From IMG/VR virus record IMGVR_UViG_2740892214_000003: a DNA stretch of 8,865 nucleotides, one strand, 5' to 3'. This document shows positions 2,398-8,173 of the stretch, one piece after another. The translations under genes were made by a program, and so were the position numbers. Positions within the stretch are counted from its first letter, which is position 1. The number at the start of each line of letters is the position of its first letter. The notes under the pieces were generated by a model. That model did no database searches and was not told the DNA's origin. It saw only the letters and a list, made by a program, of their open reading frames with translations. Source of the stretch: a virus (lineage: Duplodnaviria > Heunggongvirae > Uroviricota > Caudoviricetes).

Positions 2398-2787
2398 TCA
2401 GGCGGCTGCACCCGCCGTTTTCTCGTACTTACTGATAGTGATCTCGACCTTCCCTTTCGGGATAACCGGTCCCCACTCCACCAGCATTCTTTTCACCTGT
2501 CTGTCGTCTTCCCACACACCCGCGTGGGTCAGGGCGTCAAACAGCGCCTTGTTATAGTTGTCCAGATCACGGATCCGGTTATCCGGCGGAAACAACACGA
2601 TCTCCACTGAAGCAGGTGCCGACGTTGGTTTCGGCAGACGACGTAACTGCTCAACTATTGCTGCGCACGCCGCGCTCTGAAATTTTCGCCCCGCCTCGCT
2701 TATCAGGCTCTTACCAGCAAATGCCCCTTTGTTGGGGTGTCGCCAGTACGTGTTCACACTGGGCGGGAAAGGAAGGATCAACTTCAT
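2398..2787 (-). CDS. rusA: Crossover junction endodeoxyribonuclease RusA (Holliday junction resolvase)
   Basis: Protein MKLILPFPPSVNTYWRH...RDLDNYNKALFDALTHAGVWEDDRQV... aligns by eye with E. coli RusA (ITLPWPPSNNRYYRH...[26 protein letters not shown]). ATG at 2785-2787 overlaps the upstream stop (ATGA). Confidence 0.85.
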   Translation of the reverse strand: MKLILPFPPSVNTYWRHPNKGAFAGKSLISEAGRKFQSAACAAIVEQLRRLPKPTSAPASVEIVLFPPDNRIRDLDNYNKALFDALTHAGVWEDDRQVKRMLVEWGPVIPKGKVEITISKYEKTAGAAA

Positions 2788-3110
2788 ACTTTCAGGCCCC
2801 TCTCATGTAACCAGTGGGCTGCACGCAACCTGGCGCTCTCCTCACCGGCAAGCAGTGCGCGGATGATACCGACCGCTTCGCTGTCGTCGTCCTTCACTGC
2901 GGTATGAAGCGTGATCCCCCGGGCCACGCCACGCTTTATCGTGATGACGCCTTTTTTCTCCAGTGCGCGAAGATGCTCCACCGCTGCATTCACTGAACGG
3001 TATCCCAGCATGGTTGCCACCTCCTGATTGGTTGGCGGAAAGCCACGCTCTTGCTGGTAAGAAATCAGCATATCCAGCACCTGCTGCTGGCATTGAGTTA
3101 ACGTCGTCAT
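2784..3110 (-). CDS. LexA N-terminal DNA-binding-domain-like protein lacking the S24 peptidase domain
   Basis: N-terminal 70 aa (MTTLTQCQQQVLDMLISYQQERGFPPTNQEVATMLGYRSVNAAVEHLRALEKKGVITIKRGVARGITL) parallels the LexA winged-helix domain ([58 protein letters not shown]...GASRGIRL). The protein ends after 108 aa with no Ala-Gly cleavage site or Ser/Lys peptidase core. ATGA overlaps on both sides. Confidence 0.7.
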   Translation of the reverse strand: MTTLTQCQQQVLDMLISYQQERGFPPTNQEVATMLGYRSVNAAVEHLRALEKKGVITIKRGVARGITLHTAVKDDDSEAVGIIRALLAGEESARLRAAHWLHERGLKV

Positions 3111-3760
3111 GCCGCCATCTCCCTGACAAGTTTTTCTGCCTGCTGGCGAACCTGCGCCAGAAACGCCTCACCACATGCCTCAAGTTCATCGCGCCCGATG
3201 TAGCTGATTGCCGGTCCCTTCCAGGTCTTGTCGAAAACAGCAATAGCACCAGCGAAGAAAGCGCCTGTCGGCACCTGCTTCTCGTCCTTCGGGATAAACC
3301 AGGCTGGCAGTTCAAAACCAATACGCCCGCGAATAAAAGCAATATGGTCTGCATCTTCCGGCCACCACACTTCGCTGGTGGCAGCTTTGATCAGGAAAAC
3401 ATAGCGCCCGCCTTTATCACGCATAGCACTGGCATGTTTCATGATGTAACGCATGCCGGTGATGTATTGCCCCTCATGCTGACTGGCGCGGCTGTACGGG
3501 GGATTACCAAAGGCAGCACCTTTAAGCTCCGCAAGACGTTCTGACCAGTCATGCGCCAGCGCGTTGTCTTCCGCAGTGTAATAAGCGGCACATTTGGCGT
3601 TATCACCATCAGTGAACAGATCCAGAACAAACGGGCCAAACAGGGTGTTAATTCCCCAGAAAATGTTGTCCGGCGTGCGCCACTGATCGCCCACTTCCTT
3701 CAGTTCATGGGCTGGTTTGTTCCGCAGTTCCACCAGCGCCTGGCAATATTTATTACTCAT
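3107..3760 (-). CDS. Phage DNA N6-adenine methyltransferase (Dam-like, orphan)
   Basis: Motifs WRTP, FGNPPYS (the NPPY catalytic motif) and the FIRGRIGF region are typical of the phage Dam family. The ATG at 3758-3760 overlaps the upstream stop (TAATG); the track start at 3793 is a GTG and would overlap the upstream gene by 33 nt, so it is less likely. Confidence 0.85.
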   Translation of the reverse strand: MSNKYCQALVELRNKPAHELKEVGDQWRTPDNIFWGINTLFGPFVLDLFTDGDNAKCAAYYTAEDNALAHDWSERLAELKGAAFGNPPYSRASQHEGQYITGMRYIMKHASAMRDKGGRYVFLIKAATSEVWWPEDADHIAFIRGRIGFELPAWFIPKDEKQVPTGAFFAGAIAVFDKTWKGPAISYIGRDELEACGEAFLAQVRQQAEKLVREMAA

Positions 3761-4248
3761 TAAGCCCCCACGTAATTCCCTGATAGATACCACTCTTCAC
3801 CTGATGCAGCGCGCTTGCTGCTTTTCCGTAAGCACCGCTCACGACGCGCCAGAAAATTGTTTCGTTCTGGCTGGGAGTGGCTTTCACGGAATGCCGCCAT
3901 CCACACGGTTGCAGCACGACGGTATAAGCCCCTTGACTCCAGTTCTTCAGCCTGGCGGGTCAGGCACAAAATCACCCGGGGATCGTTAGTGCCGACATAG
4001 AAATTGCGCACAGGTCTGGTTTCACGAACTGGTTGTGGTTCCGGCTCCTGCGCTCTCTCAGTCAGGCGTGGGAAATGTCTGCGTGTATCTCCTTCACAAC
4101 GGTGAGCCACACGCCCACTCTGACGTAACTTGCTTGCAGACTGCAGAACGCGCTGCCGTGAGTAACCTGCAAAAGCATCCGCAATGTCTCCGGAAGTACA
4201 CCCCGGATGGGCTTCAATGAATTTCTGAACTTCATTCAAAAGACTCAT
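3760..4248 (-). CDS. Putative regulatory protein with an N-terminal wHTH-like region and a PerC/ANR-like C-terminal motif
   Basis: Open frame coupled to both neighbours. The first ATG is at 4246-4248 (MSLLNEVQKF...); the track start at 4254 is a GTG. The C-terminal segment LTRQAEELESRGLYRRAATVWMAAF resembles, from memory, the conserved helix of PerC/ANR-family activators. The family assignment is tentative. Confidence 0.55.
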   Translation of the reverse strand: MSLLNEVQKFIEAHPGCTSGDIADAFAGYSRQRVLQSASKLRQSGRVAHRCEGDTRRHFPRLTERAQEPEPQPVRETRPVRNFYVGTNDPRVILCLTRQAEELESRGLYRRAATVWMAAFRESHSQPERNNFLARRERCLRKSSKRAASGEEWYLSGNYVGA

Positions 4249-4250
4249 GA

Positions 4251-5243
4251 TCACCCCCTGAATCCTACCGGGATCTGGCTGTAGTCCACGTTGTCGTAAC
4301 TGGCTTTGAAGTACGGGTCTTCACGTTTTTCTGTGTGCGTGCTGACGGACGGCGATAAGCGCAGGGAAAGCTCATCCCATTTTTCCCGCAACTTCGACGG
4401 GCTGAGCACGTTACGGCACCAGAACGGATCACGGCTGACGCGGCTGTACATCTCGCAGATTTGTTTGTGAGTACGACCATCCTGCACACACATCAGGCGA
4501 ATTTCGTTTGCCCATGCTGTCCAGTTCGGTTCTTTGGGACGAACCACCTCGCCGTCACATTCGGCGGCCTGCTCGTACAGGGCGATGATTTTTTTCCAGA
4601 GCCACTGTGCGCAGGTCAAATCATCCTGCGTTCCCCACTGGCGCTTTTTAGGGCTGAATACAACCGCATCAGGATGGCGAGTTAAAAACTCCTGTTCAGC
4701 CGTTTGCGTGTCCGGTTGCGAAGCGTCCGGACGAGAAGAGGTTTTATTCTCTGTAGTAATCTCTGTTGTATTCTCTGTAAGATCATTGGGCCATTTTGAC
4801 CCGATGACAGCGTGTCGTTTTGAACCAATGGATCGTGTCATTTTGCGCCCATCCATCAGGTCACTTTGACCCGATGGAGAAGTGCATTTTGACCTGATGG
4901 ATTCGTTCACTTTGACCTCTTCTAAAAGCTCACTTTCATAGTTGATCGTGTAGAAGTTGGTCATGTCACGCTTCGATTTATTGAGTTGCTCGCGACGCAA
5001 AACCCCAAGTGATTTCAGGCTTGCAAATGTGCGTTTCAGAGTGGACTCTGACCAGAACGGAAACTGCTCCAGCCACTGTTCTGTCGTGTTATAAACCCAG
5101 CGAATTCCGCCATGCTCAGTGCCTGAATTCGTTTCATTCAGCCAGTAATGAAGCTGCTGCAACACAATTGCCTCATTCAGACCAATACGGCATGCAAGAT
5201 CACGATTTATCACAATGGGCTGGGATGTCATTAACAGACTCAT
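4251..5243 (-). CDS. O-like replication initiator (replisome organiser) with the origin iterons inside its coding sequence
   Basis: 330-aa ORF; the N-terminal region (INRDLACRIGLNEAIVLQQLHYWLNE...) resembles phage replication-initiator wHTH domains. Six iterons of about 17 bp lie in the middle of the gene, as in lambda O. ATG at 5241-5243 overlaps the upstream stop (ATGA). Confidence 0.75.
   Translation of the reverse strand: MSLLMTSQPIVINRDLACRIGLNEAIVLQQLHYWLNETNSGTEHGGIRWVYNTTEQWLEQFPFWSESTLKRTFASLKSLGVLRREQLNKSKRDMTNFYTINYESELLEEVKVNESIRSKCTSPSGQSDLMDGRKMTRSIGSKRHAVIGSKWPNDLTENTTEITTENKTSSRPDASQPDTQTAEQEFLTRHPDAVVFSPKKRQWGTQDDLTCAQWLWKKIIALYEQAAECDGEVVRPKEPNWTAWANEIRLMCVQDGRTHKQICEMYSRVSRDPFWCRNVLSPSKLREKWDELSLRLSPSVSTHTEKREDPYFKASYDNVDYSQIPVGFRG
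4746..4782. repeat. Three tandem 11-12 bp repeats (TCTCTGTNGTA) flanking the iterons
   Basis: attctctgtagtaa / tctctgttgta / ttctctgtaaga read directly from the sequence; they encode the TEN/TEI/TEN repeat in the initiator linker. Confidence 0.6.
4793..4922. repeat. Replication-origin iterons: six direct repeats with consensus CAYTTTGACCYGATGGA at 22-24 bp spacing
   Basis: Repeats start at about 4793, 4815, 4839, 4862, 4885 and 4908 (cattttgacccgatga / cgttttgaaccaatgga / cattttgcgcccatcca / cactttgacccgatgga / cattttgacctgatgga / cactttgacctc). The spacing of roughly two helical turns is typical of initiator-binding iterons. Confidence 0.7.
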
Positions 5244-5464
5244 GCCGCACCTCCGAGATGCTTCATGTTTTTTCCGGAGCGAAAGGCTATAAGCGGCATA
5301 CTGACGCGGTAATTACGACCCAGCGGTTCACAAATCACCTTCTGACATTCACGGTCCACCAGGCTAACACGTAGAACATGCCCTGCAGGCGTGGTGTACC
5401 ACTGACCGGGGCGAGGACAACGGAAAGTCTGATTGGTAAATCGTTTGAAAATATTCCGGATCAT
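5240..5464 (-). CDS. Hypothetical small basic protein (74 aa)
   Basis: ATG at 5462-5464 overlaps the Rha-ORF stop and its own stop overlaps the O-like ATG (ATGA both sides), which argues that it is translated. No family recognised. Confidence 0.5.
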   Translation of the reverse strand: MIRNIFKRFTNQTFRCPRPGQWYTTPAGHVLRVSLVDRECQKVICEPLGRNYRVSMPLIAFRSGKNMKHLGGAA

Positions 5465-6624
5465 TTGCGCCCCCTTACCTCTGAAGAGTTCAGCGACGAA
5501 TGAATAAGACGGGCAAGAAATGCCGCATCGTTAATTCGGTCATACAGACTTACAGCCAGAGGTGATTCAGCTTTTTCCAGCATGGGATAAAGCTGCTGCA
5601 ACCAGACCTGATGAATTGATGAAATGTAGGAATAGAGAACACTGGCGTTATGTGCAACGTCGCTCGGTACAGCGGGCTTTGAAAGCTGTTTCTCCATCTG
5701 GTTAAAGGCATTGATGTATGCCTCTTTGCACTGGGCAGCACGTTTACCCGTGAAACCCATAGCAAGAAACGCAAAGCCATCGCGGGTTATTTGATAGCAA
5801 GGTAGTTTGCGAGTACCGCCGTTGGGCTGGCGTACCAAAATTGATGTCTCCGCAAAATTGCGGGCACAAAACTCTGGAGAACAATCCAAAATGCGAATCT
5901 TTTTCAGAACATCGTCATGACGTTTAGAGAAGAAGTCAGCAACAGCCAAAGAAGATGTAACAGCCTGACCATCAACGATGGCAATTTCAGGTTGAGAGAG
6001 GGTTGGGAGAGTAGTCATAGTGACAGCCCCGGTAGTCAGTTTTTTAGAAAACTCACCACATGGGACGCCAATCACAGAGGTGGTGAGACGTACAGGGTTG
6101 GCGTTACCGGAGACTACCGAACCCGGCCCGACCGAAGTCGGCCCTGTACGCCCCACCATAATTTGGGCGTAGCAATGCTCATGACACGAAAAAACCGCAT
6201 GAGCGCGGTTATGCTCAGTAATCAATTTCAGGACGCCAATCCCGGCACCCGCTTTATAAGGTGCCTGAACAGTGTAACGTCCCGGAATGGCAGAATCAAT
6301 GTGCTGGTGGTCCTTCACACTCAACAAAATCACGCCTGAATTTCCACAAAGGACTAAAGCACTCATGCGGGTAGTCTTTGCGAAGATAGATAACGCGCTG
6401 TGTTTCTGGCTCCCAACGAATAACATGGACATAAAGCCCTCTTCCATCACGAAACCAGCGGTTAAGTTCCTGCACAACTCGCCCCCCACAGTCAGGTAAA
6501 GTTCTCTGTGGTTACTTACAGCCAGGTGATTTGGTAATCTGCATTCATGCCGTAACAACAGGTGTTCAGCGACACTGACCACCAGCTGTTGCGACAAACG
6601 GTTATTTGCCGTTAAACTGTTCAT
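5461..6624 (-). CDS. Rha-family phage regulatory protein carrying an unrecognised N-terminal extension of about 200 aa
   Basis: Residues about 215-311 (IAIVDGQAVTSSLAVADFFSKRHDDVLKKIRIL...RKLPCYQITRDGFAFLAMGFTGKRAAQCKEAYINAFNQME) match the pRha domain pattern. The same frame stays open for a further 606 nt upstream, to an ATG at 6622-6624 that overlaps the CII-like stop (ATGA). An alternative internal start is the ATG at 6016-6018 (MTTLPTL...). Confidence 0.6.
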   Translation of the reverse strand: MNSLTANNRLSQQLVVSVAEHLLLRHECRLPNHLAVSNHRELYLTVGGELCRNLTAGFVMEEGFMSMLFVGSQKHSALSIFAKTTRMSALVLCGNSGVILLSVKDHQHIDSAIPGRYTVQAPYKAGAGIGVLKLITEHNRAHAVFSCHEHCYAQIMVGRTGPTSVGPGSVVSGNANPVRLTTSVIGVPCGEFSKKLTTGAVTMTTLPTLSQPEIAIVDGQAVTSSLAVADFFSKRHDDVLKKIRILDCSPEFCARNFAETSILVRQPNGGTRKLPCYQITRDGFAFLAMGFTGKRAAQCKEAYINAFNQMEKQLSKPAVPSDVAHNASVLYSYISSIHQVWLQQLYPMLEKAESPLAVSLYDRINDAAFLARLIHSSLNSSEVRGRK

Positions 6625-7199
6625 GCGTTAGTTTCTCCACAGACACAAAACGCCACGACGCCCGGAGCTGCACACTCGCGGGCGTTACTCTTTTCCGGCG
6701 CACAAAAAACACGAAATAACAGTGTTAAATGCTCCTGCCACTTCGCCATTACTTGGTAGCTGTTCTCTTCGATTTGCTCACGCTCAGCCTGGTCAATAAC
6801 TCCATCAGCAGTTGCCTTGCGTAAGTACTGGGAATGCTTGCCAATCCATTCTATTGACTCCATCAGCCGCTGATTAATGTCACCATTGTCAATGTCATCA
6901 ATGACCACCAGCGGCACAAACACCCCATTACTACGACGGGCTATTGCATCTGTTATATGCCTGGTACCACTGGCATCCTGTAAAACCATGGCCCACTCAA
7001 GTGGAAAAATTTGATCCCCACCGCTACGCAGTCTGTTATGCAATTGATCTTTTGCTGGGGTGATATCATCAGATTTATACAAACCAAGAATTTCTGCTGC
7101 TTCCTCATAGCCATGAGGTAAATCAGCAATCGTTCTTCGTATTGCTGCCACCAGCCATGCTGGTTGTTTATCAACTTTCCATTCAGGTTCTTTACCCAC
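6621..7199 (-). CDS. CII-like regulatory protein (possibly CP76/YdaT family)
   Basis: 192-codon ORF immediately downstream of cro, the position of cII. Apparent GTG start at 7197-7199 with a GAGGA 7 nt upstream on the minus strand. The family assignment rests on position and a loose resemblance recalled from memory. Confidence 0.5.
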   Translation of the reverse strand: MGKEPEWKVDKQPAWLVAAIRRTIADLPHGYEEAAEILGLYKSDDITPAKDQLHNRLRSGGDQIFPLEWAMVLQDASGTRHITDAIARRSNGVFVPLVVIDDIDNGDINQRLMESIEWIGKHSQYLRKATADGVIDQAEREQIEENSYQVMAKWQEHLTLLFRVFCAPEKSNARECAAPGVVAFCVCGETNA

Positions 7200-7226: not shown

Positions 7227-7424
7227 TTATGCCGCAGCACTGTTAGTCTTTTGATATAAAGACACGTCAACTTTCAGTTTTCCGTTAGTAATTTTTTCTA
7301 ACTGGTACGCTCGGCCTTCAGGAATAATCTCAGGCCACTCTGAAACAGACGGATGCTTAATACCTAGGGCTTCGGCGGTTTTACAAACTCCGCCGAAATA
7401 ATTAATCACGTCGGATTTCCGCAT
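7227..7424 (-). CDS. cro: Cro-type repressor (P22 Cro-like)
   Basis: MRKSDVINYFGGVCKTAEALGIKHPSVSEWPEIIPEGRAYQLEKITNGKLK parallels P22 Cro (MYKKDVIDHFGTQRAVAKALGISDAAVSQWKEVIPEKDAYRLEIVTAGALK). ATG at 7422-7424 with GGGAGA upstream; divergent from the repressor gene. Confidence 0.85.
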   Translation of the reverse strand: MRKSDVINYFGGVCKTAEALGIKHPSVSEWPEIIPEGRAYQLEKITNGKLKVDVSLYQKTNSAAA

Positions 7425-7485: not shown

Positions 7486-7496
7486 GAATCCTACAT
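7479..7496. promoter_or_regulatory. Degenerate operator (ATGTCAAGAATCCTACAT) with one good half-site
   Basis: The right half ATCCTACAT is a perfect half-site and the left half is poor. It lies inside the 9-bp inverted repeat TGCCAATGT...ACATTGGCA (7475-7500). Confidence 0.45.
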
Positions 7497-7503
7497 TGGC
7501 ATG

Positions 7504-7521
7504 TGGTAGGATTGCCTACAT
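7504..7521. promoter_or_regulatory. Degenerate operator (TGGTAGGATTGCCTACAT) overlapping the repressor start codon
   Basis: Matches 7 of 9 and 8 of 9 positions of the operator half-sites; sits in the position of an OR3-like site. Confidence 0.45.
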
Positions 7522-8173
7522 GATGAACATGAGTGATCGTATTCGCCAAAGGCGAAAAGAACTGAACCTGACACAACAAGCACTGGCTGATTTGACTGGT
7601 GTGAACCGTGTCACGGTTACTGGATGGGAAAAGGACGACTACCAACCAAATGGAGCCAACCTTCAAGCCCTAGCCAACGCACTTAAATGCGATCCTCTGT
7701 GGCTTGTTAGCGGAAAAGGCTCGCCTGAACCAAAGATAAATCTAAAACCTGAAATATTCGCAGTTAAAAAAGTCCCCCTCATCTCGTGGGTTCAGGCGGG
7801 TTCATGGACAATGACGGAGCCTGGTGTCAGGAAAGAAGATGCTGAAGAGTGGGTTTATACTACCGCCCTTGTATCAGAAATGGCATTTGCACTACGGGTC
7901 CGTGGTGATTCAATGACCAATCCCCTCGGCTCACCATCGATACCAGAAGGTTCTATCGTTATCGTAGAGCCAGATATTATTGATACAGAGTGTATTAACG
8001 GAAAAATCGTTGTTGCCCATATCAATGGTGGGCAAGAAGCGACACTCAAAAAATTTGTTGAGGACTGGCCGAACAGGTATCTCGTCCCACTAAATCCTAA
8101 CTATAAAACTATTGAATGCGGTGAGAACTGCAGAATAGTTGGTCTTGTCAAACAAGTAATAATGGATTTTTGA
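7520..8173 (+). CDS. cI: CI-type phage repressor: N-terminal HTH plus C-terminal S24 (LexA-like) autopeptidase
   Basis: The HTH region (LTQQALADLTGVNRVTVTGWEKD), an Ala-Gly site (VQAGSW), the catalytic Ser in GDSM and Lys in TLKKF are all present. The track start at 7496 is a TTG; the first ATG at 7520 sits under a degenerate operator and has a weak AGGA 8 nt upstream. Confidence 0.85.
   Translation: MMNMSDRIRQRRKELNLTQQALADLTGVNRVTVTGWEKDDYQPNGANLQALANALKCDPLWLVSGKGSPEPKINLKPEIFAVKKVPLISWVQAGSWTMTEPGVRKEDAEEWVYTTALVSEMAFALRVRGDSMTNPLGSPSIPEGSIVIVEPDIIDTECINGKIVVAHINGGQEATLKKFVEDWPNRYLVPLNPNYKTIECGENCRIVGLVKQVIMDF

Follow-up and report, generated by a model that had tools for sequence, protein, structure and literature searches.

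A lambdoid Escherichia coli prophage module with an O-like initiator ending in a DnaT-like tail and no recognisable helicase loader

Introduction

In bacteriophage lambda the replication genes are ordered O-P-ren, with the iterons of the origin lying inside the gene of the initiator O and the loader gene P directly after it. Not all lambdoid bacteriophages follow this layout. Replication modules with an O homologue only were found in 34 of 314 Enterobacteriales lambdoid phages, and their replication was called "not yet understood" (PMC12315714). One of these "O-only" modules belongs to LLS, a relative of mEp460_4F5 (Zheng, Casjens, Davidson, Amundsen, Smith, Genome Res 2025, PMC12315714), and the "Eru6" type of Shiga toxin (Stx) phages (Stx2a_WGPS2) has the same module (PMC8951638). 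The loader-less layout is already published as an open problem and is not new; both papers leave its mechanism aside and mention neither the PerC-like gene nor the DnaT-like tail described here. The present work deals with such a module in a stretch of 8,865 nt from a tailed-phage record (IMG/VR IMGVR_UViG_2740892214_000003). This whole stretch, hereafter the window, comes from a lambdoid E. coli prophage, of which it forms the immunity and early-right region; the early-right genes are on the minus strand. Its replication module comprises an O-like initiator of 330 aa followed by a YfdN/PerC-like protein of 162 aa, and shows no structural difference from the modules of LLS, mEp460_4F5 and Eru6, which likewise have an O homologue and neither helicase nor loader.

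With lambda, the window shares the iteron origin in the initiator gene, a similar initiator C-domain and a Ren-type winged-helix gene after the replication genes. However, P is absent, the initiator ends in a DnaT-like tail instead of ...TDWIYGVDL, its N-terminal domain and its iterons are unrelated to those of lambda, and the Ren-like gene has an added PerC-like domain. The Rac-type pair YdaU-YdaV (a DnaT-domain initiator together with a DnaC of the phage) and the dnaT-dnaC pair of the host have the same ...IPxGFRG tail as the window, but the window carries no dnaC and its initiator resembles DnaT in the tail only, the C-domain being of another kind. At a related locus, L221, an initiator with both the DnaT domain (PF17948) and the tail is followed by DnaC and then by a YfdN-like protein. 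Finally, the PerC Pfam domain is common, above cut-off, to the 162-aa protein and to the activators of the LEE (locus of enterocyte effacement), namely PerC of enteropathogenic E. coli and PchA-C of enterohaemorrhagic E. coli. Unlike these, the window protein, which is likened to them by sequence, has two domains, a Ren-like winged helix-turn-helix (wHTH) being added, and is encoded within the early replication operon, not at a moron position; activation of ler is not reported for it. The yfdN gene of E. coli K-12 is a cryptic-prophage copy of the same gene.

Results and Discussion

The initiator gene (4251-5243, minus strand) was assigned through phrog_391, "replication initiation O-like" (E=3.8e-101), and the gene of the 162-aa protein (3760-4248, minus strand) through PF06069 and phrog_1324. 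An initial annotation of this DNA had stated that no recognisable helicase loader follows the O-like initiator and that a 162-aa protein with a wHTH-like N-terminus stands there instead. Both statements were confirmed. The coordinates, the PHROG matches and an AlphaFold2 (AF2) model agree on the gene order and on the winged helix, and six-frame phmmer searches of the window with lambda P, two other P proteins, DnaC and DnaB gave nothing below E=0.1. Moreover, the window reaches from cI to Q, and each open reading frame (ORF) between them received a non-loader assignment in Pfam, NCBIfam and PHROG profile searches. A P- or DnaC-like gene just outside the window, which the initial annotation had left as a way out, is argued against by mEp460, because this phage carries the same module and its complete 44.5-kb genome, searched with the same queries, gave nothing below E=0.1 either. 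At the DNA level, several E. coli chromosomes carry the module at 100% identity, and a 2.36-kb query (the gene upstream of O, O, YfdN and Dam) matched phage mEp460_4F5 with 98% identity over 91% of the query.

The absence of a loader could mean that the module is a decayed remnant which lost its loader gene and that the prophage is unable to replicate. K-12 does carry a degraded copy of it (yfdO-yfdN-yfdM in CPS-53), and many of the database proteins are fusions or fragments. Nevertheless, no ORF of the window module is broken and all are translationally coupled, isolated phages that propagate share its gene order (mEp460, SfII, Stx2 phages, the PhiR series and also LLS; PMC12315714), and the module is found in plaque-forming or inducible phages (mEp460, SfII, SfV and Stx2 "Eru6" phages). 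Decay is therefore, in our opinion, the least credible of the explanations, with hardly any probability left to it.

The initiator is built of a winged-helix origin-binding domain (aa ~10-101), a disordered linker (aa ~103-177), a lambda-O-C-like helical domain (aa ~183-296) and the DnaT-like tail. Over about 104 aa its C-domain shares 40% identity with lambda O (lambda nt 39220-39495, E=8e-19). The Pfam search gave no match to Phage_rep_O (PF04492), and the structure model, which is of low confidence, has a different winged helix. Searches of the PDB by sequence gave no match for the initiator or for the 162-aa protein. As in ori-lambda, the origin DNA joins iterons inside the initiator gene with an AT-rich element, and it is this DNA that encodes the disordered linker. 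A repeat search located the iteron array at 4784-4920, with consensus CATCGGGTCAAAATG on the minus strand and a spacing of 23-24 bp. Four strong 15-nt iterons (at most 3 mismatches) lie at 4792-4899, where 0.29 are expected by chance and none of 200 shuffles reached four; about two weaker ones accompany them. Adjoining the array, the same kind of search found three AT-rich direct repeats of 12 nt (4745-4780), coinciding with a local dip in GC and, judged by ori-lambda, likely to be the unwinding element. The DnaA box consensus TTWTNCACA is absent from the window, and a DnaA-box route to the origin was rejected for this reason. Many lineages conserve the initiator, its iterons and the AT-rich element, which are under selection.

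The last residues of the initiator, DYSQIPVGFRG-COOH (4254-4286, minus strand), resemble the end of E. coli DnaT, SQIPPGFRG-COOH. Reading of the K-12 dnaT gene gave ...NTVSEPDSQIPPGFRG-COOH as the C-terminus of DnaT (...EPDSQIPPGFRG). By BLASTP the two tails share eight of nine residues, both at the extreme C-terminus. When the initiator alignment was compared with DnaT by hhalign, the tail region alone was aligned (E=1.7e-4), and the idea that the window initiator contains a DnaT domain was rejected. It has no match to the DnaT single-stranded DNA (ssDNA)-binding three-helix domain (PF17948) and no likeness to the N-terminal oligomerisation domain or to the acidic PriB-binding linker of DnaT. 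Relatives come nearer to DnaT: a Salmonella initiator has 17 identities in 40 positions with DnaT residues 142-179, and that of L221 is a true DnaT-domain protein ending in the tail. The annotation DnaT-like already stands in many phage records, PF17948 being present in many, and RAST labels related initiators "Primosomal protein I".

Every initiator preceding a YfdN-like gene in our alignment ends in D-x-x-[IVL]-P-x(1-3)-G-F-R-[GQS]-COOH, yet the N-domains of these proteins are of four or more kinds and their C-domains belong to three unrelated types. Among tail-bearing initiators in general there are at least four types of N-domain and at least four of C-domain (lambda-O-C-like, Phg_2220_C PF09524, the "FEQAWLVYPKR" type and true DnaT PF17948). 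Two other meanings of the tail, a beta-clamp-binding motif and a mimic of the C-terminus of the single-stranded DNA-binding protein (SSB), were considered and dropped, because the exact DnaT match explains the conserved IP-x-GFRG positions, which fit neither of them.

The distribution of the tail was then compared with that of loaders. Viral contigs were searched with the DNA pattern for D-T-x-I-P-x-G-F-R-G-stop, which gave 115 ORFs with the tail, and loaders were counted in the 87 modules that have 1.5 kb or more of DNA downstream. A DnaC homologue (E about 1e-75 to host DnaC) lies immediately downstream in 38 of the 87, and the one such protein compared, from L221, is 50% identical to host DnaC. 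These O(tail)-dnaC pairs point to the classical logic of initiator plus loader, and their order resembles that of host dnaT and dnaC, which are adjacent with a gap of 2 nt. No loader was found in the other 49 modules, and in none of the 87 was P or DnaB downstream. Two initiators identical at 323 of 325 positions (L199, 7292-8269; L206, 3705-4682) illustrate both situations: one precedes a DnaC homologue, the other has no loader and precedes a Ren-like DUF977 protein. A different ending, ...TDW[IA]YGV.., is present in all 79 O proteins linked to lambda P, and also in mEp237 and Klebsiella phage 2 LV-2017. This P-linked tail may also be written ...NTDW(I/A)YGV... (L235-L314; L095, L096, L097), the lambda-type form being ...TDWIYGVDL. 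Lambdoid initiators thus form two tail classes that track the type of loader. From this comes a broader idea, to which we give somewhat less than an even chance: ...IPxGFRG-COOH may be a transferable docking peptide, handing proteins bound at an origin or a fork over to DnaC·DnaB, so that the tail picks the loader, ...TDWIYGV leading to P and the DnaT-type ending to DnaC.

For the window itself, the explanation that we consider best, and slightly more probable than not, is an "initiator-solo" module in which the DnaT-like tail of O recruits host DnaC·DnaB and the YfdN-like protein is the counterpart of ren, not a loader. Borrowing of host DnaC is proposed because the initiator shares the C-terminal tail of DnaT. 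The 330-aa protein would bind the iterons within its own gene and open the adjoining AT-rich repeats. There would be no hand-over to a phage P. Instead, the copy of the host DnaT C-terminus in which O ends would bring host DnaC·DnaB to the opened origin, either directly or via the usual partner of the DnaT tail. In this way the phage would need no loader of its own. In modules that do have a phage dnaC, the DnaC·DnaB brought in by the tail would be that of the phage, and elsewhere that of the host. The initial annotation had proposed, as one of two options, that the initiator's C-terminal domain recruits the host helicase directly. The DnaT-like tail and its distribution, restricted to modules with a DnaC-type loader or none, favour the initiator C-terminus as the recruiting element for the host helicase machinery; the recruitment itself we infer.

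A phage of this kind could also do without dedicated helicase loading at an origin, if its productive replication depended mainly on host recombination and restart, with RecBCD and RecA forming D-loops on which PriA-PriB-DnaT-DnaC then act, and with O contributing little or at an early stage. The DnaT-like tail, which could tie O to the PriA primosome, would be in keeping with this view, and LLS, which is Chi-rich and has no recombination module of its own, grows better with RecBCD (PMC12315714). Nonetheless, RecBCD enhances the growth of LLS without being required for it (PMC12315714), the conserved and selected initiator, iterons and AT-rich element argue for origin-dependent initiation, and initiators with this tail also directly precede a phage DnaC gene, which points to the classical pairing of initiator and loader. 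Replication through recombination and restart is in consequence an unlikely explanation, although of those competing with recruitment by the tail it is the one that we would take most seriously.

The other option of the initial annotation concerned the 162-aa protein. Its gene starts with ATG at 4248, 2 nt from the initiator stop and with the Shine-Dalgarno sequence AGGGGG ahead; translated from this ATG the protein has 162 aa, against 164 aa in the ORF listing, where a GTG further upstream (4254) is taken as the start. In the AF2 model (predicted local distance difference test, pLDDT, 76) residues 1-62 form a winged helix and residues 92-150 three helices, with a disordered linker between them and a disordered tail at the end. 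The Ren-like winged helix is assigned to aa 1-60, the linker is variable, the PerC-like domain spans aa ~90-148 and the conserved disordered tail reads WYLSGNYVGA. Foldseek with this model found only generic ArsR/MarR/BlaI winged helices. The C-terminus had been described as PerC/ANR-like, of which the first half stands: PerC (PF06069) is matched over aa 100-151 with 36.1 bits against a cut-off of 22.6, whereas the NCBIfam model of ANR (AraC negative regulator, NF033650) reaches 23.6 bits, below its cut-off of 32. The strongest PHROG match is phrog_1324 (264 bits, E=8e-79), followed by phrog_1687 (E=7.8e-5) and the Ren-like phrog_142 (E=0.0068). In profile, PDB and fold searches the protein showed no P, DnaC or DnaB similarity and no AAA+ fold, and no profile identified it as a known loader.

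The relation to Ren was followed with a profile of the YfdN family, which matched proteins encoded after P: an ORF of Klebsiella phage 2 LV-2017 with 39.8 bits, the Ren-like gp44 of mEp237 with 19.8 bits and, weakly, lambda Ren itself with 10.5 bits. Cross-matches among PHROGs join phrog_142 (Ren), phrog_1687 and phrog_1324, with phrog_1687 as the bridge to both others. The C-terminal motif of Ren (..ECRxS..M.RVL..) is absent from the YfdN-like protein and has the PerC-like domain in its place. Regardless of the type of loader, a gene of the Ren type always comes after the replication genes. From the profile matches and the PHROG links, the YfdN-like gene is therefore taken as the counterpart of ren, P being simply absent. 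Thus, the gene does directly follow the initiator, as the initial annotation had said, but its location is better described as the ren position of a module without P than as the P position.

The gene has been known under other descriptions. RefSeq annotates it as "yfdN: PerC family transcriptional regulator". K-12 yfdN was treated as the PerC homologue of that strain and was deleted as a precaution in a study whose LEE1/ler assays covered the Pch proteins, PchD and PchE having little or no effect (PMC5931665). From sequence, we regard the protein as an accessory early protein in which a Ren-type winged helix is fused to a PerC-like protein-binding helical module. Modules of the PerC/ANR type work through protein contacts. 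Most likely, we infer, it is a dispensable early regulator or host-interaction factor.

The YfdN-like protein could instead be a new kind of loader or adaptor that replaces P, binds the initiator, perhaps at its tail, and delivers host DnaB. Its gene is translationally coupled to the initiator gene immediately before it, and this adjacency is kept in nine lineages, Citrobacter, Salmonella, Atlantibacter, Kosakonia and divergent E. coli among them, at 31-48% identity and usually with a 4-nt overlap, while the neighbour on the other side varies (Dam, a D12-class methylase or MT-A70) or is missing. The predicted-disordered C-terminal motif [WC][YCF]L[AS]GxYxG (aa 153-162; 3763-3792 in the window), of a kind typical for docking peptides, is kept in the members that follow loader-less initiators and missing from both DnaC-linked members (L221, L185). 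In addition, a genome-wide screen in which the responsible gene was not mapped found that E. coli became filamentous when the UTI89 region UTI89_C5098-C5102, which is this module including yfdN2, was over-expressed (PMC6206680). Against a loader speak the lack of P, DnaC or DnaB similarity and of an AAA+ fold already described, and the homology of the N-domain to Ren, whose gene in lambda comes after P. Furthermore, proteins of the same family coexist with true DnaC: in L221 and L185 the order is initiator-DnaC-YfdN-like, the last gene encoding a phrog_1324 member with a PerC match. Conversely, the gene is missing from 46 of the 49 loader-less tail modules of the viral-contig sample, and from the loader-less Klebsiella phages ST147-VIM1phi7.2, where Dam follows the initiator, and ST405-OXA48phi1.2. 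The two most distant two-domain homologues lie beside RecT or AlpA instead of an initiator, and in Salmonella phage 118970_sal3 the gene is fused to the initiator and broken. All this makes a hidden loader improbable, clearly more so than replication by recombination and restart, and it disfavours the undescribed replication role that the initial annotation had suggested for the small protein; a supporting role in replication retains a small probability.

As to the fusion in 118970_sal3 (L112, 2886-4332), the initiator and YfdN-like ORFs are joined in frame (...IPEGFRG-MSLLAKV...) and the PerC-like part is split off as a second small ORF. A role of the YfdN-like protein as controller of the downstream methyltransferase was also considered and rejected, the methyltransferase being of three unrelated families or absent while adjacency to the initiator is constant.

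Several points weigh against recruitment of host DnaC·DnaB by the tail. The globular C-domain of the window initiator is not DnaT-like, the likeness being confined to the tail. A 2026 paper on the preprimosome structure proposed DnaT's N-terminal domain for DnaB/DnaC recruitment and did not discuss the tail, and the accessible literature holds no experiment tying the tail of DnaT or of a phage initiator to DnaC or DnaB, nor does it assign the tail a partner, which could equally be PriA, PriB or ssDNA. A literature search on "initiator-solo" modules matched no papers. Both linkage and the strong redundancy among enterobacterial prophages confound the co-occurrence of tail and loader type, many of the sampled loci are prophages of unknown viability, and the P-linked sample is of low diversity. 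To these must be added the tight coupling of the YfdN-like gene to the initiator in nine lineages and the loss of its C-terminal motif beside DnaC.

The remaining genes of the window complete a lambdoid layout. The cI-like S24 repressor (7496-8173) is on the plus strand, and all the others are on the minus strand: cro (7227-7424), a YmfL/CII-like gene (6621-7199), Rha/Ash (5461-6624, phrog_821) and a gene for a DUF4222-like protein of 74 aa (5240-5464, phrog_1153, E=1.3e-45), whose stop overlaps the initiator start (ATGA) and which fills the same slot directly upstream of the initiator in related loci. The Rha/Ash ORF is listed with 387 aa, but the phrog_821 profile begins at aa 61 and the real start is probably downstream; this gene serves as a "replication" marker in the typing of Stx phages ("Eru6/7/9") despite being a regulator. 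In a Salmonella relative (L089, 5086-5719) a TumE/HVO_A0114-type gene pair is inserted on the opposite strand just upstream of the initiator region.

Downstream of the module, the ATG of a phage Dam-type N6-adenine methyltransferase gene (3107-3760; PF05869, E=1.1e-45; TIGR01712, 255 bits) overlaps the YfdN-like stop codon (TAATG). In the window and in loci L082, L084, L087, L091, L093 and L094 this slot holds Dam (PF05869), a D12-class enzyme (PF02086), MT-A70 (PF05063) or nothing, which, the three families being unrelated, amounts to non-orthologous replacement at a fixed position. Next comes a gene for a 108-aa protein (2784-3110) consisting of a LexA DNA-binding domain (PF01726, 69 bits) without the S24 peptidase domain, which may be a non-cleavable LexA mimic and which almost all related modules keep at a distance of a few genes downstream of the initiator. 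It is followed by RusA (2398-2787), KilA-N (1548-2378), DUF968 (551-1546) and Q (162-548). The KilA-N-type gene is broken at ~2080-2290 by consecutive N (bases masked or unknown), and its middle is unreadable.

Conclusion

For the PerC-like protein the outcome is deflationary, an accessory gene in the Ren position rather than a hidden loader. For the initiator, modules without a helicase or loader gene make up about one ninth of enterobacterial lambdoid phages and include Shiga-toxin and serotype-converting Shigella phages. For their replication, called not understood, the DnaT-type tail offers a concrete and testable hypothesis, namely that host DnaC is borrowed, and the two tail classes of lambdoid initiators predict the loader used. 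If this is true, it would bear on the open question of how DnaT recruits DnaB/DnaC in replication restart. On the broader docking-peptide idea, loader-less phages would hijack host DnaC, and the tail of DnaT itself would be the missing element for DnaB/DnaC recruitment in the PriA-PriB-DnaT restart primosome.

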